From Escherichia coli (GTDB lineage: Bacteria > Pseudomonadota > Gammaproteobacteria > Enterobacterales > Enterobacteriaceae): a stretch of DNA of 64,000 nucleotides. The DNA is taken from the NCBI RefSeq assembly GCF_048403405.1, contig NZ_CP183129.1; one strand, written 5' to 3'. The translations under genes and the position numbers were made by a program. Shown here piece after piece: positions 3,506 to 57,334 of the stretch. Position 1 is the stretch's first letter, and each line of letters starts with the position of its first letter. The notes beneath the pieces were generated by a model. It had not been told where the DNA came from. It searched no databases and worked only from the letters and a program-made list of their open reading frames with translations.

Positions 3506-3612
3506 TTTTTATTGTGCCTGACGAAGTTGTGTTGAAGGCACTATAACACGATGCTAGCATTTGGCAATCAAGACGTTTAGATGTCTAAATAAAACAATAA
3601 GGACAACACAAC

Positions 3613-4701: not shown

Positions 4702-4710
4702 CGTACATAT

Positions 4711-4908: not shown

Positions 4909-5020
4909 CTAAACCTCCGGTAATACAAATGCCCTCCTGAATTAAGAGGGCTTAATTGCTATCAACACGCTCGGGCTGAGAGTAAGGGGAACGCTCAGCA
5001 CATCCCCCCTCACTCTGACT

Positions 5021-16638: not shown

Positions 16639-17450
16639 CCGAATCAGTAGCCCGTTTGCGTGGCGAACAGTTAACCCTCGGATATGGCAAATATACCGTT
16701 GCGGAAAATCTGACTGTAGAAATTCCTGATGGTCACTTCACGGCAATTATCGGGCCAAATGGCTGCGGTAAATCCACGTTACTGCGTACCTTAAGCCGCC
16801 TGATGACGCCTGCTCACGGGCATGTCTGGCTGGATGGCGAGCACATTCAACATTACGCCAGTAAAGAGGTTGCACGCCGGATTGGCCTGTTGGCGCAAAA
16901 CGCCACAACGCCGGGAGATATCACCGTGCAGGAGCTGGTGGCGCGTGGGCGTTACCCGCATCAACCGCTGTTTACTCGCTGGCGCAAAGAAGATGAAGAA
17001 GCGGTAACGAAAGCGATGCAGGCCACGGGAATCACTCATCTGGCAGATCAAAGCGTGGATACCCTTTCTGGCGGACAACGCCAGCGAGCGTGGATAGCAA
17101 TGGTGCTGGCCCAGGAAACGGCAATTATGCTGCTCGATGAACCAACGACCTGGCTGGATATCAGTCATCAGATTGATCTCCTGGAACTGTTAAGCGAACT
17201 GAACCGCGAGAAAGGCTATACCCTGGCGGCGGTGCTGCACGATCTTAATCAGGCCTGTCGTTACGCCAGCCATTTGATTGCATTGCGGGAAGGGAAAATT
17301 GTTGCTCAGGGAGCGCCGAAGGAGATTGTCACTGCTGAATTGATCGAGCGCATTTATGGTCTGCGCTGCATGATTATTGACGATCCGGTAGCCGGAACTC
17401 CGCTCGTGGTGCCGCTCGGACGAACGGCACCTTCAACTGCCAAGATTTAA
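16635..17450 (+). CDS. fepC: ferrienterobactin ABC transporter ATPase
   Basis: Walker A GPNGCGKST and LSGGQRQR signature; start at MTESVARL, ATGA overlap with fepG. Confidence 0.95.
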   Translation: MTESVARLRGEQLTLGYGKYTVAENLTVEIPDGHFTAIIGPNGCGKSTLLRTLSRLMTPAHGHVWLDGEHIQHYASKEVARRIGLLAQNATTPGDITVQELVARGRYPHQPLFTRWRKEDEEAVTKAMQATGITHLADQSVDTLSGGQRQRAWIAMVLAQETAIMLLDEPTTWLDISHQIDLLELLSELNREKGYTLAAVLHDLNQACRYASHLIALREGKIVAQGAPKEIVTAELIERIYGLRCMIIDDPVAGTPLVVPLGRTAPSTAKI

Positions 17451-18580
17451 ACTAAGTGCTCTTCCATCACGGCATCCTGTTTTCTGGATGCCATCGCATA
17501 GCGCAACAGCACGCCACCACAAGCCACCATCCCGCCGATCATCGCAGAAAGGATCACAATAATCGCCTTACCCGGACCGTCTTTTTTCACTGGCAATGAC
17601 GGGCTTAACTGATATTTAAACGGCGTAAAATTCACATCGTTGATATTTGCTTTTGTTAATTGCTCGACAAGATACTGACGATTACGTAATTCACCGTTCA
17701 GTTCCGCAACGTCAGTAACCGCTTTTTCAATTTCCAGTTTGCGTTCAATACCGTCTGCGCCGAGAGAAATAGAGAAATCGGGGTCATCTTTAACGGCCTG
17801 ACCATTACTGTAAACGGGCTTTTTAATTCCTGCCGCGTTGGCAATGTCGAGTGAATAATTGAGGCGCTGAATGTTTGCATCAAGTTGATTTTTCATTTTA
17901 ATGCGGTCCTGAGCCAGTTTTTCTTTTTCAAACTGGGTTTTAAGCTCCAGTCTATTGCGCTCATTTTCTATCGACTCTTTCACCACCAGAGCAGAGATAT
18001 AATCGATATACCCGCTCAAAACGGTTTGCGCCTCTTCATTGGTTGGCGCGGTAAAACTTAGCGTCCAGGAGGTATAAAGTGACGGTTCATCTTTTTTCTT
18101 ACTGGCATTGTCATCAACCGCTTTCATTTTTTCGCTCAATGCGACAATTGCGCGATGCAAATCCAGTTCGTCGATTTTCGCCTCTTTTAATTGGTCCATC
18201 ACATAAGGTGTTGAGCGCAGGTACTCTTCCAGCAAGCTAACCGACTGAAACTTCTTGATAAACAGGTTAAATGCTTCTGTACGATCAATTTTGATATCCA
18301 GATCCAGCACTCGAAGCTTAGTGAATGTTTTCTCCAGCTCTTGCCACTGAACAGGTTCTGGAGGCGTGACAACCGCCGCGCTGGTCCATTTTTGCGGCAG
18401 GATGAAAGAGATCAGCAAGCCTGCGCAGGCAAACGCAAAAATGACCGCCATGACCGTTTTTTTGGCCCGCCATAAAACTGCGATTAGATTAAGTAAATCA
18501 ATTTCATTATTACTGGGCGACGCCAGAGGATACTCAGGAAAATGAGCGTCACTTCCCTGTTTAATATTCAGTGATGACAT
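17447..18580 (-). CDS. fepE: polysaccharide co-polymerase-like protein FepE
   Basis: Start placed at MSSLNIKQ; synteny. Confidence 0.9.
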   Translation of the reverse strand: MSSLNIKQGSDAHFPEYPLASPSNNEIDLLNLIAVLWRAKKTVMAVIFAFACAGLLISFILPQKWTSAAVVTPPEPVQWQELEKTFTKLRVLDLDIKIDRTEAFNLFIKKFQSVSLLEEYLRSTPYVMDQLKEAKIDELDLHRAIVALSEKMKAVDDNASKKKDEPSLYTSWTLSFTAPTNEEAQTVLSGYIDYISALVVKESIENERNRLELKTQFEKEKLAQDRIKMKNQLDANIQRLNYSLDIANAAGIKKPVYSNGQAVKDDPDFSISLGADGIERKLEIEKAVTDVAELNGELRNRQYLVEQLTKANINDVNFTPFKYQLSPSLPVKKDGPGKAIIVILSAMIGGMVACGGVLLRYAMASRKQDAVMEEHLV

Positions 18581-18794
18581 GGGGTATAACCTGAAAATGA
18601 GTCCAATAGGGGAAATCTCCACGGCGCTCACTTTACCAGTTGGTGATAATTATTCGAAGCTGAAGTTTGTAAATTCCTTCCACTGAATGCAACATTCACT
18701 CTATTTAAGAGAAATATTCATCAAACCTATAAATCAAACAAATAAAAAACCCATAATTATTTTCTGTAATTATGGGTTTATAGATAATGTTAAT

Positions 18795-21700
18795 TTATCT
18801 GTTTAGCGTTGCGCGAATAATCGGCCCAATTTTTTCAAATGCCCCTGGAGAGATAATATCCACATGCGCACAATCCTGACGATAGATATCCAGCTCGGCT
18901 ATCCACGGCGACCAGACGCGTTCGGGATTCATACCTTCCTGAAGCGTGCGTTCAGCAACAAACAGCGTCGCTTTACCGTCAAACGGTACGCTATGAGCAG
19001 TCGTCAGCAGGCGCACAGCATCAGCGTAGTTGCCTTCAATGGTGGTAAACAACTCCGTTGAAGTACTTCCCTGCTGTGCCGCCAGGAAGGCCTCGCGCTC
19101 GCGGTTAATCTCCGCCAGCACTTCCGGGTCCAGGCCATTAGCCTCTTTTTCCTGCCAGTTTTGCGTTTCTGGCGGCCAGGTATCCAGCAAGCCAAGAAAT
19201 GCCACCTGTTCGCCACGGGCACGCAGCCGCGCCGCAATACCCTGCGCCAGCGTACCGCCCAGCGAATAACCCAGCAGGTAATAAGGGCCGTGCGGTTGAT
19301 GCTCAAGTAACGTTGCCAGATGCGCTTCGCAGACTTCATCCAGATTTGCCGCGGTCTGCATGGGGCCATTGGGGCGCGGCGACTGAATGCCGATAATCGA
19401 CCATTGTGGATCGAGATAACGCGAGAGCACGCTGAACTGCCAGGCAAAACCGGACGCAGGATGGAAACAAAACAGCGTCGGGCCATTACCTTCACGCAAC
19501 GGCAGAATGGTTTCGAATCCCATGCGCCGGGAGCTGTCTTCTTCACCATCAATAATCGTTGCCAGTTTGGCGACAGTTGACGCGACCATCACCTGCCCCG
19601 GCGTCACCTGGCGGGTAAACTGCCGACTTAACTGCGCAGCCAGTTTCATTGCCAGTAGCGAATGACCGCCAAGCGCGAAGAAATCAGCATCGGCATCCTG
19701 CACGTCACAACCCAGCAACGACGAGAATGCCGCGGCGATAATCGTTTCACTGCCCGCTTTCGGCGCACGCCCCGGCGCTTGTGCCTTCAGTTCAGGCAAC
19801 GGTAAGGCTTTGCGATCCAGCTTGCCGTTGGCGCTAAGCGGCAACTGCGGAAGTTGCAGCAGAACCACGGGCACCATATGCGGTGGCAATGTTTCGCGCA
19901 ACTGCGCCTGCAATGCAGTGGTATCCAACGGCAGGCCTGATTGCGACACCAGATACCCAACCAACTGACGCGCATCGCCTCCCGTTGCGGCAGCCTGGTT
20001 AATAACGCAGGCGTGGGTCACGGCCTGTTCAACGTCCGGCAGCGCCTGCATCACGCGATCGATTTCGCCCAGTTCGATACGCTGCCCGCGAATTTTTAGC
20101 TGATCGTCACTGCGCCCGAGGTACTCCACCGCGCCGTTATCCAGCCAGCGGGCAACGTCTCCGGTACGGTACATCCGTTCGCCAGGGGCAAAAGGATTGG
20201 CAATAAAGCGGCTGGCGGTCAGATCGGGTCGTCCGAGATAGCCCTGCGCCAGTTGTATGCCAGTGAGATAGAGATCTCCCGCCACACCCGGCGGCACCGG
20301 ATGCATCATCGCATCAAGAATACGCAGGCCCGTATTCCACACCGGATAACCAATCGGCACACTGCTGCCGCGCACCTGAGCCAGTTCCTCGCCAAAAGCC
20401 GGATACCAGCTGACATCTACCGCCGCTTCCGTCGGGCCATATAGATTATGCAACGGCACGCTGGTTAACTGTTGCCATTCGCGGCATAAATCAGCGGGTA
20501 AGGCCTCACCACTACAGAAAACCTGTTTCAACGTCGCGCAATTCTGGCGAGCGGTTTGCGGCGTCAGCGATGCAACAAATGCCGCCAGCATCGACGGCAC
20601 AAAGTGCGTAGTCGTTACGCCATATTCGGCAAAGAATTGCTGCATAGCGAGCGGATCGCGGTGCGCTTCCGGTTCAGCCATCACCAGTTTAGCCCCGGCA
20701 ATAAACGGCCAGAAAAACTCCCACACCGAGACATCAAAACTGCACGGCGTTTTTTGGGCAACGACATCTTCGCCTGTAAGCGGGTAGTGGTTTTGCATCC
20801 AAAGCAGGCGGTTAACGATAGCCGTCTGCCCGACCATTACCCCTTTCGGCCTGCCGGTGGAGCCAGAGGTAAAGATGATATAAGCCGTGTGGTGCGGTTG
20901 TGAAAGTTTCAGCGGCGCACTGCCCTGCGGTGTAAGCGGGGCGTTATAGCAAAGGCGGGTTAAATCTGGAACATCGGCAAAGCGCGGCAGTTGATCGTCG
21001 GTGGTGATTAACAGCGACGGACGCGCATCTTCCAGCATCATTTTCAGGCGATCGTCCGGATAGCCGGTATCCAGCGGTAACCAGGCCGCACCAGCCTCAA
21101 CAATTGCATGTAGCGCCAGAGTCAAAAAGACCGAGCGCGGTAGCGCCACCGCCACGCTGTCGCCTGGTTTAACGCCGCGCTCACGCAGCAGATTCGCCAG
21201 CGCCACCACCTGCTCGCGCATTTCCCGATAGCTAAACTGGTAACTCGCATCAACCAGCGCCGGAGCATGCGGTGTTTTTGCCGCCTGTTCCGCCACCAGC
21301 GCGCTCAGCGTGGTTTCTGGAATCTCAACCTGAGTGGCGTTGATCTGCGCCAGCTGCACATATTCACCTGGCAGCATAATATCGACATCGCCGCACAACA
21401 GCGCCGGATCCGCGGCGAACTGGGCAATCAGCATTTTCAGGCGTTCAGCGTGTTGAATTAACGTTGGCTCATCGTAACGCTGTTTATTGGCGAGGATCTC
21501 AATACTCAAATCACCGTGTTCATCCGGGAACAGTGCCAGTTCAAGGTCATTAACCGGACCGGTTGCCAGGGTATGGGTTTGCGCCTGAACACCAGGAATA
21601 TCCAGTTGGTAATCAAATACCTTGATATTGAGTACCGGACCAAACAGCGGTTCATCACCTGCCGCTCGCCCGCTGTCACGGACAATTTGTTCGGCATCGT

Positions 21701-27648: not shown

Positions 27649-27745
27649 GTTTATATTGCCTCCATGCGAAGAAGGGACTACCATCCGAGTTGTTCAGGTT
27701 TGGGTAGGTAGCCCCAGGGTGTACTGACCCCAAAAAGTTGGACAG

Positions 27746-28597
27746 TTAAACACGAGGCATATAGGTCTGATTCCGATATTCAATTGGAGTCAGACCTTTT
27801 AATTTCAGGCTAATTCTTCTGCTGTTGTAGTATTCAATATATTCCGTAACAGCATCCTTCAGTTCGCTTATATTACTGAACTCATCAAGATAAAAACACT
27901 CCGACTTTAAGGTTCCAAAGAAACACTCCACCACAGCATTATCCAGACAATTGCCTTTTCTGGACATGCTTTGTTTAATACCATGTTCTTTAAGGATATT
28001 TTGATATCTTCTCATACGATACTGCCATCCCTGGTCAGAGTGCAGAACAGGATGCTCGTGAGGATTAAGCTTTTTGAATGCCTGATCGAGCATATTCTCA
28101 ACCATGTTCATCACTGGTCTTTCCGAAAGGCTGTAAGAAATAACTTCGTTGTTGAAGAGATCTATTACTGGAGACAAATACAGCTTGCGCCCATTGACTA
28201 CAAATTCAGTAACATCGGTAACCCACTTCTCGTTTGGCCGCGTAGCCTTGAAATCTCTTTGGAGAACATTAGGGGCGGTTTGCCCTACCTCTCCTCTGTA
28301 AGAGCGGTATCGCTTGACCTTAATCGCTGCTTTAAGTGAGAGGGTTCCCATCAGGCGCTGAACAGCTTTATGGTTAATCTGTTTCCCTTCTCGATGAAGA
28401 GACAGCGTTACCCTACGGTATCCGTATCGGCCTCTATTCTCGTGATAAATCTCACCAATACGCTTTTTAACGTCCGCATACTTGTCAGGCTTGCTGAGAG
28501 CCTTTAGATGGTAATAAAACGTACTGCGCGGTATCTCCGCAGCCCTGAGAAGCTCATCAAGAGGATAAAACTGCCTTAGCTCGTTGAGTACTTTTAC
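27746..28597 (-). CDS. insK: IS150 transposase OrfB (expressed via -1 frameshift from insJ)
   Basis: DDE-transposase-like ORF in IS3-family arrangement; 5' boundary approximate (the ORF track shows only the 201-aa Met-initiated part). Confidence 0.8.
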
Positions 28598-29115
28598 TTT
28601 TTCGTGGGATGAGCTAAGGCTTTCAGCTTTTTTAGATACATAAGCCGCGTTTCAAGAAATCGAACTTGCCTTTCAAGATCCTCAATGCGTCGGTCTTTTG
28701 ACAGCTCCAATGCTGATGCCGCTTTTTCTGGATCAACTGATATTGCAATGTTTCTTTTGGTGCCAATCTTGAGCGCGCGTAAACCAGCTTCTCCGCGCTC
28801 TTCATAGACCTTCAGCCACCTGGCTACAGAACCACTACCAGCAAGCATAAAGTGAGCAGCAGCCTGATTAAGGGACATGTGCTGCTCGATCACAGCTTTC
28901 ACGACCTTAATACGCAACTCTGGATCAGCACTAACGCCTTTAGGTTTGGGAATTAAACCTTTTTCTCCATGTTTTTCATAGAGGGCAACCCATGTCCTGA
29001 CCTGGGTTCGGGGGACACCAAAACGTGCCGAGATGATCCTGTAACCATCATCAGTTGTGAAGTAGTGATTCACGACTTCAAGGCGCTTTTCAAAAGGGTA
29101 TTTTGGCTTTGACAT
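28594..29115 (-). CDS. insJ: IS150 transposase OrfA (HTH)
   Basis: 173-aa ORF MSKPKYPFEKRLEVVNHYF... recognised as IS150 InsJ. Confidence 0.9.
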   Translation of the reverse strand: MSKPKYPFEKRLEVVNHYFTTDDGYRIISARFGVPRTQVRTWVALYEKHGEKGLIPKPKGVSADPELRIKVVKAVIEQHMSLNQAAAHFMLAGSGSVARWLKVYEERGEAGLRALKIGTKRNIAISVDPEKAASALELSKDRRIEDLERQVRFLETRLMYLKKLKALAHPTKK

Positions 29116-29526
29116 ATTAGGGGCTATTCCATTTCATCGTCCAACAAAATGGGTGCAGTACAGGGTTGATAGAAATATCTCCTGGGGCTTCATCTTTCCA
29201 GACCTCAGAGTAAACCTGAAACCGGAAAGCTTCAGGCACCCGCCGTTATCTTACCCTTCCTCAGCAAAATAGCTGTTTATTTATACAGTGAGTCCTGTTT
29301 CGGACTTCTCACTCCTAATTTGATCAACTGAAGCTGAACCCGTTTTTTTCTGCATGCCTCAATCGTCAAAATTCTTCGCCACCAGCCAGCTCTGCCATAA
29401 CTTGTCACATTGCAAAAGTAGCCAAATTGCTTCAGTCACCATCACCAAAAAAAAGAAACATTCCAGAACTTCCGCATCTCGCCCAGCCGCTCCGACTTCT
29501 ATACTGAATAGAAAACGCCAACATAA

Positions 29527-39798: not shown

Positions 39799-41170
39799 TT
39801 ATTGCTGCCAACCGCCACCAAGTGCGGTATATAAAGAAATTTCGTTAACCTGACGGGCATAATTCAGGTCAAGTAAAGTTTGTCGGGTTGCAAATAAAGA
39901 ACGTTCGGCATCCAGCACTTCCAGATAACTGACTGCGCCGTGCTGATATAATGCCCGCGCCCGTTGCAAAGTAATTTGCAGCGATGCCAGATAACGCTGC
40001 TGGGCGCTAATTTGATCGTTCAGGCTTTGACGTAATGCCAGCGCATCTGCCACTTCTTTAAAGGCATTCTGGATTTTCTGTTCATAATTCACCACCGACT
40101 GCTGCTGGCGAATTTCGGCGATATCCAGATTGGCCTGGTTGCGTCCGGCATTAAAAATGGGGATCTCAATTTTGGGAATAAAATTCCACATCCCGCTGCT
40201 GGCGTTAAATAAGGACGACAGATCGCTGCTGGCGGTCGATATTCCGCTGGTCAGACTGATAGACGGGAAAAATGCCGCGCGTGCAGCGCCAATATTGGCA
40301 TTAGCCGCCATCAACGCGTGTTCAGCTTCCATAATATCCGGGCGCTGCAATAAGATTTGCGACGACAAGCCCGCCGGTAATTTAACGCTTTGCAGGCTGT
40401 CGCTGTTTACTGTTTGCGCTTGCGGCAGCTTGCCGTAGCTTCCCAGCAACAGTTGCAATGCATTATTCGCCTGCGCCAGTTCCCCCTGACGTTTAGCGAT
40501 GTCGCTGCGGGTACTTTCTATCACCCCGCGAGCCTGTTCCAGCGCCAGAACATTGCTGCTACCGGTCAACAGTTGTTTTTCGACAAACGCATATGACTGC
40601 TGATAATTACGCAGCGTTTCTTCGGCTATTTGCAATTGCGCATACGCCAGTTGCTGATTGAAATAGCTTTGCGCGACATTAGAAACCAGCAGAATATGCA
40701 CCGCGCGCTGGGCTTCCTCAGTGGCTAAATAATTTTGGCGCTCGGCTTCGCTCATGTTCTTTAAGCGACCGAAAAAATCGAGATCAAAGCTGGCGTTAAG
40801 GCCGGTCGAAAACTCCCGTGTCGTGGCGGTATTCCCTTTAAGATTACCGCTCCAGCTGCCGCTGCCCTCGCCATTGAGCTGTGGGTAGCGGTCGGCATCG
40901 GTCAGACGATATTGCGCCCGTGCCTCCTGCACTTTCAGCGTCGCCATGCGCAAATCCCGGTTATTCACCAGCGCCTCGCTAATCAGCGTCTTCACCTGAT
41001 TATCAATAAAAAAGGTGCGCCAGCCCGCGTTCTGGTAGTTATCTGCTGCGTTAACCAGGCCGTTCTGGCTGAGTGAGAACTGCTTCGGTACGGGCATTGC
41101 CGGACGCTGATAATCCGGTGCCAATGAACAACCGGTTAGCGCAAGGGCCACACAAAATGGCAGAAGTTTA
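39799..41170 (-). CDS. cusC: outer-membrane factor of Cus efflux, 5' end interrupted by IS26
   Basis: Lipoprotein signal LLPFCVALALTGC is present, but the first few native codons are replaced: the reading frame runs into the IS26 terminus at 41171 and only a GTG inside IS26 could serve as start. Confidence 0.85.
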
Positions 41171-41990
41171 GGCACTGTTGCAAATAGTCGGTGGTGATAA
41201 ACTTATCATCCCCTTTTGCTGATGGAGCTGCACATGAACCCATTCAAAGGCCGGCATTTTCAGCGTGACATCATTCTGTGGGCCGTACGCTGGTACTGCA
41301 AATACGGCATCAGTTACCATGAGCTGCAGGAGATGCTGGCTGAACGCGGAGTGAATGTCGATCACTCCACGATTTACCGCTGGGTTCAGCGTTATGCGCC
41401 TGAAATGGAAAAACGGCTGCGCTGGTACTGGCGTAACCCTTCCGATCTTTGCCCGTGGCACATGGATGAAACCTACGTGAAGGTCAATGGCCGCTGGGCG
41501 TATCTGTACCGGGCCGTCGACAGCCGGGGCCGCACTGTCGATTTTTATCTCTCCTCCCGTCGTAACAGCAAAGCTGCATACCGGTTTCTGGGTAAAATCC
41601 TCAACAACGTGAAGAAGTGGCAGATCCCACGATTCATCAACACGGATAAAGCGCCCGCCTATGGTCGCGCGCTTGCTCTGCTCAAACGCGAAGGCCGGTG
41701 CCCGTCTGACGTTGAACACCGACAGATTAAGTACCGGAACAACGTGATTGAATGCGATCATGGCAAACTGAAACGGATAATCAACGCCACGCTGGGATTT
41801 AAATCCATGAAGACGGCTTACGCCACCATCAAAGGTATTGAGGTGATGCGTGCACTACGCAAAGGCCAGGCCTCAGCATTTTATTATGGTGATCCCCTGG
41901 GCGAAATGCGCCTGGTAAGCAGAGTTTTTGAAATGTAAGGCCTTTGAATAAGACAAAAGGCTGCCTCATCGCTAACTTTGCAACAGTGCC
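41171..41990 (+). mobile_element. IS26 (IS6 family), 820-bp copy 1
   Basis: Termini GGCACTGTTGCAAA ... TTTGCAACAGTGCC; internal 234-aa Tnp26. Confidence 0.95.
41234..41938 (+). CDS. tnpA: IS26 transposase Tnp26 (variant with His at residue 29)
   Basis: MNPFKGRHFQRDIILWAVRWYCKYGISY(H)ELQEM... recognised as the IS26 transposase. Confidence 0.95.
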   Translation: MNPFKGRHFQRDIILWAVRWYCKYGISYHELQEMLAERGVNVDHSTIYRWVQRYAPEMEKRLRWYWRNPSDLCPWHMDETYVKVNGRWAYLYRAVDSRGRTVDFYLSSRRNSKAAYRFLGKILNNVKKWQIPRFINTDKAPAYGRALALLKREGRCPSDVEHRQIKYRNNVIECDHGKLKRIINATLGFKSMKTAYATIKGIEVMRALRKGQASAFYYGDPLGEMRLVSRVFEM

Positions 41991-42439
41991 AATTTTACGC
42001 CGTCGGCGGTACGCAGCCAGCGCGGGGATTTGAGTCCTTCCGTGAAATTCCAGACCAGCTCACACAGCAGCCCGGTCAGGGTTTGCTCCATTTTTGGTTC
42101 CGCCGGACGTTCCAGCAGAAGCTGGAGTAGTGCGAGGCAGTATTCGCACAAGGAATCAGGTTCGGAAATAAAGTGCTCTGGTGTGGCGGGAAGGGTATCC
42201 ACGGTCAGGCTTTCGGTAAGATGCGGTGGGATGGGGTCGTGTAGTGTGGGTTGCAGTAGCGCAAGAGCCGCGTGAAGCCGCCCGCAGAGCGCCAGTCGTA
42301 GCGCTGGATCGTCGGTTTCAATCAGGGTTTCGGCAAAGCGGGCGCAGTAGTCAGCAAGGACAGTGAAATCCGTGGTGGCATTGAAGGGGACGGTCAATAG
42401 ATCGAGTAAATCGCTGTCAGTGGTGAGGATTGTAGCCAT
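41972..42439 (-). CDS. hypothetical acidic protein; 3' end runs into IS26 (probably truncated)
   Basis: 155-aa ORF with a GGAGG Shine-Dalgarno upstream of the ATG at 42439; its last codons and stop lie inside the IS26 inverted repeat. No family recognised. Confidence 0.45.
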   Translation of the reverse strand: MATILTTDSDLLDLLTVPFNATTDFTVLADYCARFAETLIETDDPALRLALCGRLHAALALLQPTLHDPIPPHLTESLTVDTLPATPEHFISEPDSLCEYCLALLQLLLERPAEPKMEQTLTGLLCELVWNFTEGLKSPRWLRTADGVKLALLQS

Positions 42440-42785
42440 AGGGCAACCTCCGATAAGTGGGTGTTCAAGCCACCACCGGAGAGGCTAATCTCGCGGGTGG
42501 TGGAACCGGGCAGGGTTAGCCTTACCAGCCTTATCGGACACTGGCGCGTCTTGCGACGCCCCCGCCCGGCCCACCATTGAGATGTAACCGTGCGAACAAC
42601 ACAAAAAAAGACGCTGGCGCGTCATGTGTCGCCGATAAGATTTCTTCAGGAGGCTAATCCCGACGCCTGATTTTGCAGGCGCGGGAGAAAGATACTGCGA
42701 TTGGTCATGAGTGGCAAGGGCTACATCATGTTTACCGACATCTCACGCAAAAATACCCTGATTATTAATAGCGAAAATCAGTTTC

Positions 42786-45700
42786 TTATTTTGGCGGTAG
42801 CTTTTTGCGGTTCTTTGCCAACTGGAATCCTTCAGGTAACGGTTTGAATTTATCGCCGCCTTTAGGCCAGCGTTTTGCCCTGCTCTGAAATGCCCTTAAC
42901 GAGTCGATATCCAGCGTTGCAGCGACCACAAAGTCATTATCACCGCCCTTCACACGAGCAATATCACGCATAAAGGGTTCTTTTGCCGGGGAACGTACGC
43001 GACTATCGCCGTATTTTCGGTTATTCACTAAAATAGTATAGGCATGAATATCCAGCGCTGCTGATTCAATCAACGATGCAAACGTATCTAGATCTTTATT
43101 CCAGCTCAATACCATTAATGCATCGAGTGCGCCCTGAAAACGGATCCTCGCTTTACTATTCTGGAGTTCAGAGCAAATCATAACGCCAAAATTGACGCCG
43201 TGATGAATATATACCGGCTTACGTTGTTTAACATTAAGTGTCGAATCCCAAGACTTACCATAAGTTGAAAATAATGCCTCATCTTCACCTACGGCGGGTT
43301 CCAGCTTGGGTTGCCATATTTTGACACTCGCTGGATAGCCGAGTCTGTTATCTGAAAGGACAAGTACGGCCTCACTCTTCAGTTGATTATCGTCTAAGTG
43401 GCGGTATTCTGTTCCCGCAATTAGACTGATACCCGCCGAACTCAAACGATCAGCAATACTGTTAACCCAGCGTAACGGGATTGAAAGCTCAGGGAATAAA
43501 ACATAATCAGGTTTAGGAGATAGTTTCAATGTTGCATTAACCAGTTCAGAAATCCGCTGGTACCTTGAACGGGACAAGTTAGATTTATTGCAGGCCATTT
43601 TAGCCCAGTCGTCCTCCTCTGTTTTAATGCTGGTTAGCGCAACGACAACTTTATGTTTCCTGTCTGTGCCAATATGAATGAATTTCTTAGGCCGAGCTTT
43701 TTTTGTCGCTTCATCTGAGTCCTGCTCCGATGCTAGCAACGTCGGTTTGATCCATACTCCGCGTAATGCTTGAGTATATTTTGCCCAAATGGTGGACGGT
43801 CTCTCATCTGGTTTTTTGTCGGATGTGGAGGGTAATCCAACACATTCGGGGGCCAGTTCTGATATTTCAGCGGGTGTTAAAGGACGTGTAGGGAAAATGT
43901 AAGGTAGGTAACTTTCGTTTTTACGATTTCCTTTAGCCACTTTTTCCAGTCGGGTATTCTTGGTTGATTTCAAAAATAGCTTAATAACGTCAATATCAAT
44001 AAGCGATGAGTCGCTCATTAATTTCAGTATTTTAACTTCTTTTTTACTATCACGCTGATTAACAAGTTTTTCTGCCGACTGACTCTTTACGATCTGTTTA
44101 TAAGGTTCCTTTGCTAAATCAGCTCGAGCTACCAATGGCGCTTTTAAATAAAAATCTGCTGAATCAAAGCGAAGATCCAGTAAATCCTTTAGATTCGTCA
44201 GACTTTGTGAAATATGATTAAAAAATGTATCCGCAAGGCACTCTTCTTTCTTTGAACGTTTATCAAGAAATAATCTGTCAGGACTGTAATATCGTGTCGC
44301 TGCATCAACAAATAGCCAGCTTAATGTGCCTTTTATACAGCGCCAAAGATCATTTACTGCTCGAGTTTTGCAACCATTTATATTCACTTCCTTACCTGAA
44401 GTAATCACCGATGCCAACAGGTTGATGGATTCGTAAGCTTTAAGTACAATTTTTTCCGCGTGCTGCCATTCATTCATACTGATAGCAAAGCCAAGCAGCC
44501 TTGGCAGATAACTAAAATGTGCAAATAGATTATCAGCCCTAAGAATATGGTTGTAGGCAAACTGATAAAACTCTTCCCGCTGTTCTTTCCATTCACTTGG
44601 AGGCAGATCTCGTGCCAGTGTTTCAACGTAGCGTAATTGCAGTGACCAGCCCAAACGACGAATGGTTAATCCATCCGCACGGCGCAGAGTATCGGCATTT
44701 TCACCTACACTACCGGCAGCGGAAAGGACTTTAGCTGCGGTGGAGTGTTCCAGTTGATCCGGTGAAGGCATCAAGCGGTGTTCACTAGAAAGCTCGTAGA
44801 TCTCCTTTTCGATACTGTCGAGCAGGTCTATTCCAGCCCTCCCTTGAAGCACGAAAAGTTTTTGCTTATCGGATTGTAACTGGATGGTGGTCTTACCCTG
44901 GAAATGCTCGCCCTGCTGTATTTGCCATATTTGTTTTTGCTCGTTTTTCAAATAAACGCAATCATTGCCAAGCCTATCTTGCAGCAATAACATAAATTCG
45001 TGATTATTAGTAATTGTCCCTGTATCGCGTATTACAAGGAACATATCATCGACATAACGACCGTAGTGAATTGGTGATAGTTTTTCAATGACTAATTTAT
45101 CCCAATGGTGTAGCAATATATTTGAAATGATCCGACTGGCTGTTAATCCAATGACCAGACCACCATTAATAACAGGTGTTTTGTACGCTATTTTCTTTCC
45201 AAATGCCGCTGCGCCGTCAGACCAGTGCTTTAAGAATACTGCTAACTGTGCAGTAAACGCTTTTTCATCCTCAGTCAGTTTTATGTTTAGTGTGTTATAG
45301 AGATCATCAGAGGTTATAGCCAGTGGATCAATAAAATGATAGTAACTTTTTAAATCCAGTGAGGCGGCGATAATGTCACGATCTTTTTCCAACTCGTCAC
45401 GTATAGCTTTTAAGCCATCACCACGCCATTTTTGGTAGGGCTGGAAGTAGGGGCTAAAAGAACCCACGGCACTGATATGGAATGGATTATCCTGCTCATT
45501 GCTAAATAATTCATCATTACGAATACGCTTTAGCCGCGCGCCATAGCAACAGTTATCTAAGCTGGCATCAAATTTATGCCCGACCATGTTAATCCATAGT
45601 GCAGAGATAATGTGACTATCAACCGGGAAGTCACCAATAATACGAAACTCTGGTATCAGATCAAAATTATTAAATAAATGGTCGGCTGCTCGTTTAGGAT

Positions 45701-45995
45701 TAGAAAAGTGGACGTGTCCATTTTGGGATTCATGTTTTTTCTTTGTGGTTAATTTTTTCGGTAACAAACGAAATTTGCCAATCAACTTCTTATTGCTACT
45801 GAATCCATCTTCGCTCTGCAAAAGATCTAAGAGTTTTTGCAGGTTTTCAAGTAATTCCTGCTCATACTCGGCAAATTTGATAGCAACAGGAAATGTATTC
45901 TCAAAGAAGCTATCGGCTTTTGCTTTCCGGTAAGCGACCAGAAGGTCTTCAATCGTCAGATCATCCCAGCCAGTGAAAATTGCCTGATATGTCAT
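42786..45995 (-). CDS. reverse transcriptase-nitrilase fusion protein (DRT type 1 / UG1-like defence-associated RT)
   Basis: 1069-aa ORF with AAGGA Shine-Dalgarno. RT motif A ASLDLKSYYHFID, motif B GGLVIGLTASRIISNILL, motif C RYVDDMFLV (nt 45033-45059); C-terminal CN-hydrolase domain with FPELS (Glu836), VKIWQPK and GVMICSEL (Cys941, nt 43173-43175). Confidence 0.85.
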   Translation of the reverse strand: MTYQAIFTGWDDLTIEDLLVAYRKAKADSFFENTFPVAIKFAEYEQELLENLQKLLDLLQSEDGFSSNKKLIGKFRLLPKKLTTKKKHESQNGHVHFSNPKRAADHLFNNFDLIPEFRIIGDFPVDSHIISALWINMVGHKFDASLDNCCYGARLKRIRNDELFSNEQDNPFHISAVGSFSPYFQPYQKWRGDGLKAIRDELEKDRDIIAASLDLKSYYHFIDPLAITSDDLYNTLNIKLTEDEKAFTAQLAVFLKHWSDGAAAFGKKIAYKTPVINGGLVIGLTASRIISNILLHHWDKLVIEKLSPIHYGRYVDDMFLVIRDTGTITNNHEFMLLLQDRLGNDCVYLKNEQKQIWQIQQGEHFQGKTTIQLQSDKQKLFVLQGRAGIDLLDSIEKEIYELSSEHRLMPSPDQLEHSTAAKVLSAAGSVGENADTLRRADGLTIRRLGWSLQLRYVETLARDLPPSEWKEQREEFYQFAYNHILRADNLFAHFSYLPRLLGFAISMNEWQHAEKIVLKAYESINLLASVITSGKEVNINGCKTRAVNDLWRCIKGTLSWLFVDAATRYYSPDRLFLDKRSKKEECLADTFFNHISQSLTNLKDLLDLRFDSADFYLKAPLVARADLAKEPYKQIVKSQSAEKLVNQRDSKKEVKILKLMSDSSLIDIDVIKLFLKSTKNTRLEKVAKGNRKNESYLPYIFPTRPLTPAEISELAPECVGLPSTSDKKPDERPSTIWAKYTQALRGVWIKPTLLASEQDSDEATKKARPKKFIHIGTDRKHKVVVALTSIKTEEDDWAKMACNKSNLSRSRYQRISELVNATLKLSPKPDYVLFPELSIPLRWVNSIADRLSSAGISLIAGTEYRHLDDNQLKSEAVLVLSDNRLGYPASVKIWQPKLEPAVGEDEALFSTYGKSWDSTLNVKQRKPVYIHHGVNFGVMICSELQNSKARIRFQGALDALMVLSWNKDLDTFASLIESAALDIHAYTILVNNRKYGDSRVRSPAKEPFMRDIARVKGGDNDFVVAATLDIDSLRAFQSRAKRWPKGGDKFKPLPEGFQLAKNRKKLPPK

Positions 45996-46289
45996 GCGTT
46001 ATCGTCCTTAGATTACAGTCTGTACAGAATTAGCCAGCCGTTTCATGCCCGAAGGGGGGCTCTTGACACCAGTAATCCATCAGTGAGGCTGGCAATAATT
46101 TTGATTTGTATCCATGTTACACGCTCCCCGCAACCAGTCCGAGCATATATTTGTCACATTTTTCCCGAAAGTGATTAAGTTTGAATTTTTTGTTTAATGT
46201 CGATTTTTAGTCGACAAAATGAGGAATAAGTAAACTATTTCTTGCTGTGGCGTATCCCTGAATCTACACTGGTTTAAATATTTGTACTA

Positions 46290-47093
46290 ATGTCTATTCA
46301 GAGGCGACAGTTGCCAAACTATCTAAACTGGCTGATGCAGCACACGCTACCCGGCCAGGTGCTGCTCCAGTCATGGCTTACCCGCAACGGCATAGATCGT
46401 AAGCTCTCTTATCTCTATGTGAAGAATGGCTGGCTCAGGCGGATCGCTCACGGCGTATACTGCCGGACGGGCCGTGAGCCGGATTGGGTAGACGCGGTTT
46501 ACTGCCTTCAAACACAGTGGGAAAAGCCTGTTCGGGTGGCGGGGCTAACCAGCCTTGCGCTTCAGGGCCATGCGCACTATACCGAACCGGGTAAGCCGCA
46601 GGTCTGGCTCGCGCTTCCGGCTTACGTTAAGCTGCCGGGATGGTTTGCTGCCTTCGAACAATCTGCAACATTTATCACGCTGTATACATCGGGGCTTACC
46701 GTAGATGTAACGTCATTGACTACGGAACTGAAAATTGGCGACCGCCAGTTAGCAGGCAGTGCCCCGGAACTGGCCGCGTATGAGATCGCCTGCGGCGTTC
46801 CTTCGTTGATATCGTTCGAACATGCCGATGCTCTGTTTCAGGGGATGAATCTTCTCAGCCCACGCAAATTGCAGGCACTGCTTCGCGCCAGCCATTCGGT
46901 TAAAACCAACCGGGTGATGCTTTACCTTGCCCGGCGTAATGGACACCCTTATTTTCAGTATATTGATCAAAGCGGTATAGAAACAGGTACGGGAAAGCGG
47001 CAAATCATACCCGGCGGCTGGCTGGAGCCGGATTATCAAATTACTGTTCCACGCGCATTTAAACCGGAAGGAGTCGAAGATGGATCTGCGTGA
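46290..47093 (+). CDS. AbiEi-like antitoxin / transcriptional regulator (type IV TA)
   Basis: 267-aa ORF immediately upstream of, and overlapping by 14 bp, an AbiEii-like nucleotidyltransferase gene; N-terminal wHTH-like region with an R-x-x-x-G-V-Y motif. No clear Shine-Dalgarno, so the start is uncertain. Confidence 0.65.
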   Translation: MSIQRRQLPNYLNWLMQHTLPGQVLLQSWLTRNGIDRKLSYLYVKNGWLRRIAHGVYCRTGREPDWVDAVYCLQTQWEKPVRVAGLTSLALQGHAHYTEPGKPQVWLALPAYVKLPGWFAAFEQSATFITLYTSGLTVDVTSLTTELKIGDRQLAGSAPELAAYEIACGVPSLISFEHADALFQGMNLLSPRKLQALLRASHSVKTNRVMLYLARRNGHPYFQYIDQSGIETGTGKRQIIPGGWLEPDYQITVPRAFKPEGVEDGSA

Positions 47094-48000
47094 TAGCTAT
47101 GCCCGGCAGGTCAAACTGTTGATGGCCGCTCTGCCGTATGTGGCGAAGGAGTCCTGTTTCGCGTTGAAAGGCGGCACCGCAATCAATTTGTTTGTGCAGG
47201 ATTTTCCCCGTCTGTCGGTGGATATTGATCTGGCGTACAAGAGCTTTGCGGATCGCGATACTGATTTGGCGGCTATCAACGACGCTTTGAAGAGGATTAC
47301 TGCATCGCTGAACGGCAGACCGGGGATCACCGCGATTCGGCAGGAAAATAAAGCGGATGAAAAGCGCATCATTGTGAATACCGCTGATGCAAAGATTAAG
47401 ATCGAGGTTAGCCCGGTCTGGCGCGGGCTGTTGTTGCCTCCGGCAGAAATGCCTGTGTGCGAACGTGTGGAAATGGAGTATGGCTTCACCACCATGAGTG
47501 TCGTCTCGCTGGCGGATCTTTATGGCGGTAAAATCTGCGCTGCGCTTGATCGTCAGCACCCGCGCGATCTGTTTGATGTGCTGAATATGCTGGAGAAACC
47601 GGGACTGATGCGGGAGATCTTTGACGGTTTTCTTTGTTATCTGGCAGGCCATCCCCGCCCCATCGCCGAGTTGCTGGCTCCAAACTGGGATACAGAGCGG
47701 ATCGCCACGTTGTACGCGCAGGAATTTTCGGGGATGACTCAGCAGGAAACGTCGCTGGAATCGCTGCTGTCAGTAACGACTTTGCTGCCGCAGGCGTTGA
47801 AGTCACATCTTACGGATCTGGATCGCGAGTTCTTGCTCAGTTTTAAGCAAAACAGCCCTGACTGGTCGCGGTATCGCTATCCTGAAATTCAGCATCTTCC
47901 GGCTATTCGCTGGAAGCAACGTAATCTGGCGGTGCTGAAAGATAAAAATCCGGCGAAGTATGTGGCGGCGGTGAATAAGCTAGAGAGGGTGCTGGCGTAA
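47080..48000 (+). CDS. AbiEii-like nucleotidyltransferase toxin (DUF1814 family)
   Basis: 306-aa ORF with GGAG Shine-Dalgarno; N-terminal nucleotidyltransferase motif LKGGTAINLF...LSVDIDLAY typical of AbiEii/AbiGii toxins. Confidence 0.8.
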   Translation: MDLRDSYARQVKLLMAALPYVAKESCFALKGGTAINLFVQDFPRLSVDIDLAYKSFADRDTDLAAINDALKRITASLNGRPGITAIRQENKADEKRIIVNTADAKIKIEVSPVWRGLLLPPAEMPVCERVEMEYGFTTMSVVSLADLYGGKICAALDRQHPRDLFDVLNMLEKPGLMREIFDGFLCYLAGHPRPIAELLAPNWDTERIATLYAQEFSGMTQQETSLESLLSVTTLLPQALKSHLTDLDREFLLSFKQNSPDWSRYRYPEIQHLPAIRWKQRNLAVLKDKNPAKYVAAVNKLERVLA

Positions 48001-48364
48001 TCAATAGACCAGCATTAATCACGGATGATTACCAATCAGACAGATATGGTTAAATCATCGAATTCATAATTAATACTTTTTCTTACGCCGCTGAACAGCT
48101 TGAAAAGGATACATATTTTAAATATCAGTGAAGTGGACAGTTTATTGCCGTTATTAATAGAGATGGAGGAATAAATACGCGTATTCTACTATTGCAACAA
48201 AAACAACGATGATGATCAGTTTTCATAATGAAGTAACCTGACAGATATAAAAATGTTGATTGAGGCTCAATGCCCGGATGAAGGTTGTCGAGGGAGCCAG
48301 GTGGTTTTTTCTTTTGGGTGATCTCCATTGCTGGATAGTCCCCTCTTTCTCGCTCAAAGCAGAC

Positions 48365-48689
48365 TGTACTGCACCCATTTTGTTGGACGATGAAATGGAA
48401 TAGCCCCTAATATGTCAAAGCCAAAATACCCTTTTGAAAAGCGCCTTGAAGTCGTGAATCACTACTTCACAACTGATGATGGTTACAGGATCATCTCGGC
48501 ACGTTTTGGTGTCCCCCGAACCCAGGTCAGGACATGGGTTGCCCTCTATGAAAAACATGGAGAAAAAGGTTTAATTCCCAAACCTAAAGGCGTTAGTGCT
48601 GATCCAGAGTTGCGTATTAAGGTCGTGAAAGCTGTGATCGAGCAGCACATGTCCCTTAATCAGGCTGCTGCTCACTTTATGCTTGCTGG
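48365..48689 (+). mobile_element. IS150 5' fragment (325 bp), truncated by IS26
   Basis: Begins with the IS150 terminal repeat TGTACTGCACCCATTTTG and is identical in protein sequence to the start of insJ in the full copy at 27720-29162; ends abruptly at the IS26 terminus. Confidence 0.9.
48412..48689 (+). pseudogene. insJ: insJ fragment (first ~92 codons of IS150 OrfA)
   Basis: MSKPKYPFEKR...AAAHFMLAG, then the frame reads into IS26. Confidence 0.85.
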
Positions 48690-49509
48690 GGCACTGTTGC
48701 AAATAGTCGGTGGTGATAAACTTATCATCCCCTTTTGCTGATGGAGCTGCACATGAACCCATTCAAAGGCCGGCATTTTCAGCGTGACATCATTCTGTGG
48801 GCCGTACGCTGGTACTGCAAATACGGCATCAGTTACCGTGAGCTGCAGGAGATGCTGGCTGAACGCGGAGTGAATGTCGATCACTCCACGATTTACCGCT
48901 GGGTTCAGCGTTATGCGCCTGAAATGGAAAAACGGCTGCGCTGGTACTGGCGTAACCCTTCCGATCTTTGCCCGTGGCACATGGATGAAACCTACGTGAA
49001 GGTCAATGGCCGCTGGGCGTATCTGTACCGGGCCGTCGACAGCCGGGGCCGCACTGTCGATTTTTATCTCTCCTCCCGTCGTAACAGCAAAGCTGCATAC
49101 CGGTTTCTGGGTAAAATCCTCAACAACGTGAAGAAGTGGCAGATCCCACGATTCATCAACACGGATAAAGCGCCCGCCTATGGTCGCGCGCTTGCTCTGC
49201 TCAAACGCGAAGGCCGGTGCCCGTCTGACGTTGAACACCGACAGATTAAGTACCGGAACAACGTGATTGAATGCGATCATGGCAAACTGAAACGGATAAT
49301 CAACGCCACGCTGGGATTTAAATCCATGAAGACGGCTTACGCCACCATCAAAGGTATTGAGGTGATGCGTGCACTACGCAAAGGCCAGGCCTCAGCATTT
49401 TATTATGGTGATCCCCTGGGCGAAATGCGCCTGGTAAGCAGAGTTTTTGAAATGTAAGGCCTTTGAATAAGACAAAAGGCTGCCTCATCGCTAACTTTGC
49501 AACAGTGCC
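48690..49509 (+). mobile_element. IS26 (IS6 family), 820-bp copy 2
   Basis: Same termini as copy 1, same orientation; one nucleotide differs from copy 1 (G at 48838 versus A at 41319). Confidence 0.95.
48753..49457 (+). CDS. tnpA: IS26 transposase Tnp26
   Basis: 234-aa ORF with ...GISYRELQEM..., the form recalled as canonical for Tnp26. Confidence 0.95.
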   Translation: MNPFKGRHFQRDIILWAVRWYCKYGISYRELQEMLAERGVNVDHSTIYRWVQRYAPEMEKRLRWYWRNPSDLCPWHMDETYVKVNGRWAYLYRAVDSRGRTVDFYLSSRRNSKAAYRFLGKILNNVKKWQIPRFINTDKAPAYGRALALLKREGRCPSDVEHRQIKYRNNVIECDHGKLKRIINATLGFKSMKTAYATIKGIEVMRALRKGQASAFYYGDPLGEMRLVSRVFEM

Positions 49510-51543
49510 AAACCGTTAGCGATTATGGTTCCGGCGTGGAATGAAACGGGCGTCATCGGCAATATGGCCGAGCTGGCGGCGACCACGCTCGACTATGAAA
49601 ACTATCATATCTTTGTTGGCACCTACCCCAACGACCCCGATACACAGCGTGATGTTGACGAAGTGTGCGCTCGCTTCCCGAACGTGCATAAGGTAGTCTG
49701 CGCGCGTCCTGGCCCCACCAGCAAAGCCGACTGCCTGAACAACGTGCTGGACGCCATCACCCAGTTTGAGCGTAGCGCCAATTTCGCTTTTGCTGGTTTT
49801 ATTCTGCATGACGCCGAAGACGTAATTTCACCGATGGAATTGCGTCTGTTCAACTATCTGGTCGAGCGTAAAGATCTGATTCAGATCCCGGTGTATCCGT
49901 TCGAACGCGAATGGACGCACTTCACCAGCATGACTTACATTGATGAGTTTTCAGAACTGCATGGCAAAGATGTTCCGGTGCGTGAAGCCCTCGCCGGACA
50001 AGTGCCCAGCGCAGGCGTCGGTACCTGTTTCAGCCGCCGCGCCGTGACCGCACTGTTAGCTGACGGTGACGGTATTGCTTTCGACGTGCAGAGTCTTACT
50101 GAAGATTACGACATTGGTTTCCGCCTGAAAGAAAAAGGTATGACGGAAATTTTTGTCCGTTTTCCGGTGGTGGACGAAGCCAAAGAACGCGAGCAGCGTA
50201 AATTTTTACAGCACGCGCGGACGTCAAACATGATCTGCATGCGCGAATATTTCCCTGATACCTTTTCGACTGCGGTTCGACAAAAATCTCGCTGGATCAT
50301 CGGCATTGTTTTCCAGGGCTTTAAAACCCACAAATGGACCTCCAGCCTGACGCTGAACTACTTTCTCTGGCGCGACCGCAAAGGGGCAATCAGTAACTTT
50401 GTCAGCTTTCTCGCGATGCTGGTGATGATCCAGCTTCTGCTGTTACTGGCGTATGAAAGTTTGTGGCCCGATGCCTGGCATTTCCTTTCTATTTTCAGCG
50501 GCAGCGCATGGTTAATGACCCTGCTGTGGCTAAACTTTGGTTTGATGGTTAACCGCATCGTGCAGCGGGTGATTTTTGTCACTGGCTACTACGGTCTGAC
50601 GCAGGGGCTGCTATCTGTCCTGCGTCTTTTCTGGGGCAACCTGATTAACTTCATGGCCAACTGGCGCGCGTTAAAACAGGTACTTCAACACGGCGATCCA
50701 CGTCGTGTCGCGTGGGATAAAACAACGCATGACTTCCCCAGCGTGACTGGCGATACCCGCTCGTTGCGCCCGTTAGGCCAAATTCTGCTGGAAAATCAGG
50801 TCATCACTGAAGAACAACTCGATACAGCACTGCGTAATCGCGTCGAAGGTCTACGCCTGGGCGGTTCAATGCTGATGCAGGGGCTGATTAGCGCCGAACA
50901 GCTGGCACAGGCGCTGGCAGAGCAAAACGGCGTGGCGTGGGAATCCATCGACGCCTGGCAGATCCCGTCCTCGCTGATTGCCGAAATGCCGGCCTCCGTG
51001 GCGCTGCATTATGCAGTGCTGCCGCTGCGTCTGGAAAATGATGAGTTAATTGTCGGCAGTGAAGATGGTATTGACCCGGTTTCGCTGGCGGCCCTGACGC
51101 GTAAAGTCGGACGCAAAGTGCGTTACGTCATTGTTCTGCGGGGACAAATTGTCACGGGGTTACGTCACTGGTATGCACGCCGACGCGGTCACGATCCGCG
51201 GGCAATGTTGTACAATGCGATTCAGCATCAGTGGCTCACGGAACAGCAGGCCGGTGAAATCTGGCGGCAATATGTGCCGCATCAGTTCCTGTTCGCCGAA
51301 ATACTGACCACGCTCGGTCATATTAATCGTTCAGCAATTAACGTGTTGTTATTGCGCCATGAACGCAGTTCTCTGCCGCTCGGCAAGTTTTTGGTCACCG
51401 AAGGCGTTATCAGCCAGGAAACGTTGGATCGCGTCCTGACAATTCAACGCGAATTACAAGTTTCGATGCAATCACTATTACTCAAAGCAGGTTTAAACAC
51501 AGAACAGGTTGCGCAACTGGAGTCCGAAAATGAAGGAGAATAA
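49510..51543 (+). pseudogene. nfrB: phage N4 adsorption protein B (glycosyltransferase family 2), 5'-truncated by IS26
   Basis: The frame is open from the IS26 junction; the first Met gives 672 aa against a recalled native length of about 745 aa, so N-terminal membrane segments and the promoter are missing. Confidence 0.85.
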
Positions 51544-55575: not shown

Positions 55576-56337
55576 ATGCAATTGAGCAGCAGTGAACCTT
55601 GCGTGGTGATCCTGACCGAAAAAGAGGTAGAGGTAAGCGTCAATAACCATGCTACGTTTACCCTTCCGAAAAACTACCTGGCCGCCTTCGCGTGCAACAA
55701 TAACGTCATTGAACTCTCAACGTTAAATCACGTATTAATCACCCACATCAACCGTAACATCATCAACGATTATCTGTTGTTTTTAAATAAGAACTTAACC
55801 TGTGTAAAGCCCTGGTCGCGGCTGGCTACCCCGGTTATCGCTTGTCATAGCCGTACACCGGAAGTGTTCCGGCTAGCCGCCAACCACAGCAAGCAGCAAC
55901 CCAGCAAACCCTGCGAAGCGGAGTTGACGCGCGCATTGCTTTTTACCGTATTGTCTAACTTTCTTGAGCAATCGCGGTTTATTGCCCTACTGATGTATAT
56001 CTTACGCAGCAGCGTCCGCGACAGCGTCTGCCGCATTATTCAAAGCGATATTCAGCATTACTGGAATCTGCGAATTGTCGCCAGTTCGCTATGTTTAAGC
56101 CCCAGCCTGCTCAAAAAGAAATTAAAAAACGAAAATACCAGCTATAGCCAGATTGTCACAGAGTGTCGTATGCGTTACGCCGTACAGATGTTATTGATGG
56201 ATAACAAAAATATCACTCAGGTAGCGCAATTATGTGGCTATAGCAGCACGTCGTACTTTATCTCTGTTTTTAAGGCGTTTTACGGCCTGACACCGTTGAA
56301 TTATCTCGCCAAACAGCGACAAAAAGTGATGTGGTGA
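55576..56337 (+). CDS. envY: AraC-family porin thermoregulator
   Basis: 253-aa ORF with C-terminal AraC HTH; matches EnvY. Confidence 0.85.
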   Translation: MQLSSSEPCVVILTEKEVEVSVNNHATFTLPKNYLAAFACNNNVIELSTLNHVLITHINRNIINDYLLFLNKNLTCVKPWSRLATPVIACHSRTPEVFRLAANHSKQQPSKPCEAELTRALLFTVLSNFLEQSRFIALLMYILRSSVRDSVCRIIQSDIQHYWNLRIVASSLCLSPSLLKKKLKNENTSYSQIVTECRMRYAVQMLLMDNKNITQVAQLCGYSSTSYFISVFKAFYGLTPLNYLAKQRQKVMW

Positions 56338-56382
56338 AGGGCAAAGCGGAAACGGATAGGACGGGGATAAATGAAGAAGAAA

Positions 56383-56459
56383 TGGCGCGCCCTGCAGGAT
56401 TCGAACCTGCGGCCCACGACTTAGAAGGTCGTTGCTCTATCCAACTGAGCTAAGGGCGC
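56383..56459 (-). tRNA. argU: tRNA-Arg (anticodon UCU)
   Basis: The reverse complement reads GCGCCCTTAGCTCAGTTGGATAGAGCAACGACCTTCTAAGTCGTGGGCCGCAGGTTCGAATCCTGCAGGGCGCGCCA: cloverleaf, UCU anticodon, 3' CCA. Confidence 0.9.
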
Positions 56460-56701
56460 GTTGATACCGCAATGCGGTGTAATCGCGTGAATTATACGGT
56501 CAACCCTTGCTGAGTCAATGGCTTTTGATCTGGTTGCTGAACAAGTGAACGACCGCGTCTGATTTTCTGATTTATTTCGCTATAGCGGCAAACAAACGTA
56601 CACCGCTGCGCGTCTGAATCAAGAAAACCCGTATTTTCATGTATCAAAGTACAATTTCCCGCCCTAACGGAAAATTGTCCGATCCTATGAGACTGGTAAC
56701 T

Positions 56702-57334
56702 ATGAAACCAACGTCGGTGATCATTATGGATACTCATCCTATCATCAGAATGTCTATTGAAGTTCTGTTGCAAAAAAACAGTGAATTGCAAATTGTCCTG
56801 AAAACGGATGATTATCGCATAACCATCGATTATCTCCGAACCCGTCCTGTTGATTTAATCATTATGGATATAGACTTGCCCGGTACAGACGGTTTTACCT
56901 TCCTGAAAAGGATCAAACAAATCCAGAGTACAGTGAAAGTATTATTTTTATCATCGAAATCAGAATGCTTTTATGCTGGCAGAGCGATACAAGCTGGTGC
57001 TAACGGCTTTGTCAGTAAATGCAATGATCAGAATGATATTTTTCATGCCGTTCAGATGATCCTCTCCGGATACACTTTTTTTCCCAGCGAAACGCTCAAC
57101 TATATAAAAAGCAATAAATGTAGCACGAATAGTTCAACGATCACTGTGCTATCTAATCGTGAAGTGACCATATTACGTTATCTGGTTAGCGGATTATCCA
57201 ATAAAGAAATTGCCGATAAGTTATTACTTAGCAATAAAACAGTTAGTGCGCATAAATCTAATATTTATGGCAAGCTAGGTTTGCATTCAATTGTAGAGCT
57301 TATCGACTATGCCAAATTATATGAATTAATATAA
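56702..57334 (+). CDS. fimZ: LuxR/NarL-family response regulator of fimbrial expression
   Basis: Start at MKPTSVIIMDTHP; receiver plus HTH domains; 210 aa. Confidence 0.9.
   Translation: MKPTSVIIMDTHPIIRMSIEVLLQKNSELQIVLKTDDYRITIDYLRTRPVDLIIMDIDLPGTDGFTFLKRIKQIQSTVKVLFLSSKSECFYAGRAIQAGANGFVSKCNDQNDIFHAVQMILSGYTFFPSETLNYIKSNKCSTNSSTITVLSNREVTILRYLVSGLSNKEIADKLLLSNKTVSAHKSNIYGKLGLHSIVELIDYAKLYELI

Follow-up and report, generated by a model that had tools for sequence, protein, structure and literature searches.

The argU–envY junction in the 64-kb stretch of Escherichia coli DNA analysed here (hereafter, the window) is very probably an intact, unoccupied attachment site (attB) for DLP12-type lambdoid phages. 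It may still be able to take up a phage, its core being identical to the attP core of sequenced phages. The prophage-free adjacency of envY and argU is most probably ancestral in this lineage and not a loss, and the site was probably never occupied in it. The biology concerned is ordinary and already known, and it raises no new question.

Organization of the argU–envY locus

The window contains a single tRNA gene, a tRNA-Arg with anticodon TCT at 56383–56459 on the minus strand (ARAGORN), which scored 72.1 bits against the Rfam tRNA family RF00005 and, by reading, is identical to K-12 argU at all 77 nt; the gene is intact. Rfam also matched 'Plastid-ycf2' to the strand antisense to this tRNA, but under the family threshold, and the match was rejected as spurious. 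The gene order is nfrB'-nfrA-ybcH-envY-argU-fimZ-sfmFHDCA, in the reverse of the K-12 orientation. The parts of the locus are as follows.

55576–56337, plus strand: envY, AraC-family regulator of 253 aa, converging on argU (ORF)
56338–56380, no strand: B' arm of the putative attB, the envY-proximal spacer (read directly)
56381–56427, minus strand: 47-bp putative attB core (O), comprising the 3'-terminal 45 nt of argU and 2 further nt
56383–56459, minus strand: argU, tRNA-Arg(UCU) (ARAGORN, Rfam and reading)
56460–56701, no strand: divergent argU–fimZ intergenic region of 242 bp, collinear with K-12
56491–56518, minus strand: promoter-like site upstream of argU, TTGACT, 16-nt spacer, TATAAT (consensus scan)
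56702–57334, plus strand: fimZ, response regulator of the LuxR family, 210 aa (RefSeq, identical strain TUM14771)

The window EnvY was 99.6% identical to K-12 EnvY by tblastn, and the gene is also annotated as envY in the RefSeq record of TUM14771; the fimZ ATG at 56702 was placed from the window sequence together with the same RefSeq annotation. The envY stop codon and argU are separated by 45 bp (56338–56382). An earlier note on this DNA had given coordinates for argU and distances of 45 bp to the envY stop and 242 bp to fimZ, and all of these proved exact against ARAGORN, the open reading frames and RefSeq.

On the fimZ side, the alignment with K-12 is unbroken from sfmD through fimZ and the argU–fimZ spacer to position 56381, at 98.5% identity. 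On the envY side, the B' arm equals the K-12 stretch between the attR core and the envY stop codon, save for three SNPs. The site upstream of argU fits 11 of 12 consensus positions and is a predicted promoter by pattern match alone. Within the 45-bp envY–argU spacer, a consensus scan found no intrinsic terminator, and folding indicated no stable hairpin (z-scores of 0.03 and -0.76).

Absence of DLP12-type phage DNA from the window

The 21.3-kb DLP12 interior produced zero blastn matches to the window, and tblastn searches of the window with IntD, OmpT, YbcK, QuuD, RrrD, NohD, TfaD, EmrE, RusA and BorD returned no match with E <0.04. AppY matched envY alone in the window, with 44% identity in the C-terminal domain, as expected of an AraC-family paralogue. 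Apart from this paralogy, the blastn and tblastn results bear out the statement in the earlier note that the window contains no integrase, phage genes, ompT or appY.

The same holds for the immediate surroundings of the tRNA gene. No intD-type integrase is present 3' of argU, where the K-12 alignment ends at 56381, 2 nt beyond the tRNA, and past this position it picks up again as the attR-side flank. No integrase or tail-fibre fragment, nor any other prophage remnant, was found at argU in the window. Nor does the window have ompT, alone or accompanied by appY, between a phage end and envY or ybcH, in contrast to K-12, an ST69 strain and Nissle 1917. The K-12 alignment proposed in the earlier note thus reduces to two flanks that meet at argU and overlap by the 47-bp core, with no DLP12 between them.

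Elsewhere, from ybdN to cusC and again from nfrB to sfm, the window and K-12 are collinear, the exceptions being an IS3-family element and an IS26-bounded segment, whose elements code for DDE transposases, not phage integrases. Prophage-free DNA extends for 7.5 kb past argU on the sfm side and for 56 kb on the other side, so that the adjacent prophage that the earlier note had envisaged on extension is missing over both distances.

Attachment-site anatomy and reconstruction of the recombination

In the K-12 RefSeq record, DLP12 occupies 564755–586056, from the start of the attL core to the base preceding the attR core, with appY and ompT inside. It is bounded by the 47-bp direct repeat CTTCTAAGTCGTGGGCCGCAGGTTCGAATCCTGCAGGGCGCGCCATT: the attL core copy is the 3' part of argU and adjoins intD, and the attR core copy lies 43 bp ahead of the envY stop codon. 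For both DLP12 and a lambda-like prophage in strain SE11, published work reports 47 bp duplicated at argU (PMC6379469, PMC2608844), and attL and attR of DLP12 at argU of K-12 MG1655 were described by Lindsey et al. 1989, as cited in PMC6379469.

K-12 and the window share the same argU, the 47-bp core and the outer arms on the fimZ and envY sides. They differ in that K-12 has 21.3 kb between two cores, from intD to appY and ompT, whereas the window has one core and nothing between. The two K-12 flank alignments overlap in the window by exactly 47 bp, at 56381–56427, and a search of the 64 kb that tolerated as many as 3 mismatches found a single copy of the core (0 expected by chance).

When the whole 77-nt tRNA was used as query, the phage collection yielded mostly tRNA-Arg genes of lytic phages, which are uninformative for attP; the informative matches came from the 47-bp core alone. 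The exact core was found in 13 coliphage records, among them phage 2G7b (NC_049954), and the cores of Salmonella phages depart from that of E. coli at 2 of 47 positions. In phage 2G7b, the attP core lies between ompT and int; the integrase is 99.5% identical to IntD and the OmpT 98.7% identical to that of K-12. The 2G7b attP and the window attB have an identical 47-bp core, but the phage core is flanked by the arms P and P', not B and B', and ompT stands beside it.

A line-up of the four sites reads as B-O-B' for the window and P-O-P' for phage 2G7b, with K-12 attL exactly B-O-P' and K-12 attR exactly P-O-B'. In the window, B is the body of argU. Recombining the window attB with the 2G7b attP on paper gives K-12 attL and attR base for base, and among these four sites no identity extends past the 47-bp core on either side. 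The locus therefore illustrates Campbell-type integration, with attB, attP, attL and attR all readable in public sequences.

DLP12-type phages integrate by means of a tyrosine integrase acting between the 47-bp phage attP core and the identical 47 bp at the argU 3' end. Such an event sets the integrase gene beside argU, forming attL, and the phage cargo gene ompT beside envY, forming attR. The strain studied here has undergone no such event at argU, and so argU abuts envY at a locus devoid of int, appY and ompT. The order ompT, attP core and int in phage 2G7b explains why the presence of ompT follows site occupancy, and its absence from the locus in the window is accounted for by its being phage cargo and the site being empty. 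OmpT, an omptin protease, matters for virulence typing and for the degradation of recombinant proteins, and at argU its gene arrives as phage cargo.

Frequency of the empty junction across E. coli

All counts were taken over 5426 complete E. coli genomes. The contiguous envY–argU junction was present in 2537 of them (~47%; 221-bp probe with a coverage of 80% or more at a single place), and the whole envY–fimZ block was contiguous in 2456. The strain studied here thus belongs to the ~47% of E. coli whose argU site is free, a fact of use in annotation and strain typing. An intD-type integrase followed argU in 2743 genomes, and these junctions formed two identity classes, one at 99% or above and one at about 92–93%. 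The combination of envY, spacer and core occurred in 4099 genomes, which therefore include ~1560 with attR beside envY. Most of the remaining genomes have no envY, Nissle 1917 being an example.

Nissle 1917 (phylogroup B2) carries a decayed remnant at argU (16438–20350), in which ompT is accompanied by a truncated integrase, a fragment of a tail-fibre gene and a methyltransferase gene. The remnant has lost its neighbours on both sides, envY on one and fimZ and the sfm genes on the other; ompT has been kept and the rest of the prophage lost.

The empty junction was recovered from E. coli C, O104:H4 and O157:H7 (Sakai) at 98.6–99.5% identity; it is the same contiguous junction as in the window, from which it differs by SNPs alone. 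ompT itself was found in 3095 of the 5426 genomes, at 3256 places. Since 2889 genomes do not have the empty junction and 3095 have ompT, at least 206 must combine an empty argU with ompT elsewhere. O157:H7 is a case in point: Sakai has the contiguous junction, and in strain TR01 ompT ends a lambdoid prophage adjoining minE. An empty argU alone therefore does not prove that ompT is absent, with O157:H7 as the counter-example.

Near relatives and the absence of ompT

envY is at least 99% identical in most genomes and is too conserved to define a lineage; the 6.9-kb flank from nfrB' to envY was used instead. Six complete genomes were ~100% identical over the 6.9 kb from nfrB' to the core: strains 4621, MS 69-1, TUM1226, GN02461 and TUM14771, and record OX030728. 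In all six, the tRNA lies directly beside envY and the site is empty. Among the next 54 nearest genomes (99.1–99.3% identity) most sites, about 50, were also empty; EFF60 was not assignable, and four assemblies from strains GMF065 and ST2747 (99.3% flank identity) have no tRNA beside envY and appear occupied. Gain or loss of prophages thus happens near this lineage, as the occupied sites of GMF065 and ST2747 attest. A prophage-carrying ST69 strain with an identical EnvY was considered as a close relative and rejected, its flank being only 98.8% identical.

To locate ompT, the envY–fimZ block was joined to K-12 ompT in the opposite orientation and used as one query. As a control on this joined probe, the total number of matching places rose by 3253 over that of the block alone, in agreement with the 3256 places counted for ompT by itself. 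In the chromosomes of the 40 nearest complete genomes, the six identical ones included, no ompT was detected, each having a single matching place. The chromosomes of the nearest relatives are thus without ompT at megablast sensitivity, a statement that covers chromosomes alone. This distinguishes them from O157:H7, which keeps ompT on another prophage near minE. The earlier note had inferred that the strain lacks ompT: the absence is direct for the window, and at the level of the strain it is supported indirectly by the same 40 chromosomes. Judged from its relatives, ompT is probably absent from the chromosome of this lineage.

Outgroup comparison

In Escherichia albertii NBRC 107761 the genes run nfrA-ybcH-envY-(160-aa ORF)-argU-fimZ-sfmF, and an integrase is absent. 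The 160-aa ORF, at 5597–6079, is AT-rich and sits between envY and argU, where E. coli phages integrate. The synteny with E. albertii, together with the empty sites across distant E. coli lineages, indicates that the prophage-free state is likely ancestral. Among the GTDB species representatives, an integrase adjoins argU in two other Escherichia species and in the E. coli representative.

An exact 60-nt pattern across B-O-B' had no match among the GTDB species representatives, which are probably either occupied or endowed with a different B' arm. The tRNA-side pattern alone matched seven loci in the same set, E. albertii being one. Three others were short contigs, labelled as a Segatella copri MAG, a Collinsella MAG and Streptomyces triticisoli, on which argU is followed by an intD-type integrase (92–99.6% identical to K-12 intD); these are most likely E. 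coli contamination.

In Salmonella, the tRNA-Arg(UCU) gene fimU closes the fim cluster, adjoining fimZ, fimY and fimW. Like argU, it reads a rare arginine codon and is linked to fimZ and to fimbrial genes of the chaperone-usher type. By this analogy, the sfm-fimZ-argU linkage of the window and of E. albertii looks like the same ancestral arrangement as that at Salmonella fimU.

Alternative explanations for the empty site

The earlier note had left the choice between an unoccupied site and a lineage-specific deletion. The exact B-O-B' structure upholds the former, and deletion found no support. An illegitimate or recombinational deletion that took DLP12 together with appY and ompT could be imagined, since partial decay is known at this locus from Nissle 1917 and homologous recombination between the 47-bp direct repeats would give the same product. 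However, the junction is precise to the last base and has both arms in full, a single core and no remnant, whereas illegitimate deletions here, as in Nissle, leave recognisable scars. The exact B-O-B' junction therefore excludes an illegitimate deletion, and RecA-mediated recombination between the repeats, which is indistinguishable from Int-mediated excision, is counted with the latter; what is left of a deletion scenario is extremely improbable. An assembly artefact, in which a collapse across the 47-bp repeat dropped a prophage, is just as hard to credit. The IS26-bounded arrangement of the window, found in no complete genome of the collection, might raise this suspicion, yet typical sequencing reads are longer than 47 bp, and a repeat of this size would not make the assembly collapse. 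Moreover, 2537 complete genomes share the identical junction, including six with 100% identity over 6.9 kb, which disposes of the misassembly at this point that the earlier note had allowed for.

A more serious competitor is the loss, in a recent ancestor, of an ompT-carrying lambdoid prophage by precise Int/Xis-mediated excision, the present attB being a cured site. Precise excision restores attB exactly, regenerating the very B-O-B' observed, so that a site which was never occupied and one which was cleanly cured look alike at the level of sequence. Active phages with a matching attP exist, and prophages are present at argU in GMF065 and ST2747 (~99.3% flank identity) and in a ST69 strain. 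Against this, all six flank-identical genomes and about 50 of the 54 next nearest are empty, empty sites span lineages as distant as E. coli C, O104:H4 and O157:H7, and E. albertii has the same prophage-free order. No ompT was found anywhere in the chromosomes of the nearest relatives, and it is more economical to suppose that a minority of lineages gained prophages independently. We consider excision unlikely for these reasons. A more elaborate version, in which the site was recently vacated by the precise excision of an ompT-carrying prophage and the DRT and AbiE systems encoded 7 kb away might keep it free of lysogens, is somewhat more doubtful still. If true, a recent excision would make this a naturally ompT-negative lineage with a reusable attB. 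An attB that was unoccupied from the start remains the reading we favour.

Other features of the window

The IS26-bounded segment spans 41171–49509. Two direct 820-bp IS26 copies, at 41171–41990 and 48690–49509, have canonical ends (GGCACTGTTGCAAA), differ at one position and bracket 6.7 kb. The segment encodes a 1069-aa defence reverse transcriptase on the minus strand (42786–45995; PADLOC RT_UG5-nitrilase, 1034 bits) and an AbiEi/AbiEii pair (46290–47093 and 47080–48000). It thus holds two anti-phage systems, a DRT reverse transcriptase of UG5-nitrilase type and AbiE, and resembles a chromosomal module of anti-phage defence genes bounded by IS26.

With its flanks at 39800–41170 and 49510–51543, the IS26 segment stands in place of cusS, cusR, the promoter and opening 11 nt of cusC, and codons 1–68 of nfrB. 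The copper/silver efflux system CusCFBA is therefore left without its regulators and promoter, and NfrB is N-terminally truncated. In the nearest complete genomes nfrB is intact and is preceded by an ISAs1 element and Rhs/T6SS genes, and no complete genome of the collection has window 32000–56400 in one piece.

Over 6374 bp, the IS26 cargo at 41991–48364 shows 100% identity with 'plasmid unnamed3' of strain MS 69-1 (NZ_CP146678.1, 6001–12374). This 64-kb record, typed as non-mobilizable, has paoC, paoD, phage tail genes and pinE, and looks like chromosomal DNA. Either the MS 69-1 record or the arrangement in the window may reflect an IS26-mediated rearrangement or an assembly problem.

The IS3-family element lies at ~27721–29160, where K-12 has hokE/sokE and IS186, and its ORFs encode a 173-aa protein with HTH domains and a 201-aa protein with an rve DDE domain. 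At the start of the window, positions 1–4923 (ybdN-ybdM-ybdL-hcxA) are 93.9% identical to K-12, against 97–98% elsewhere, and this divergent segment is possibly a recombination import.
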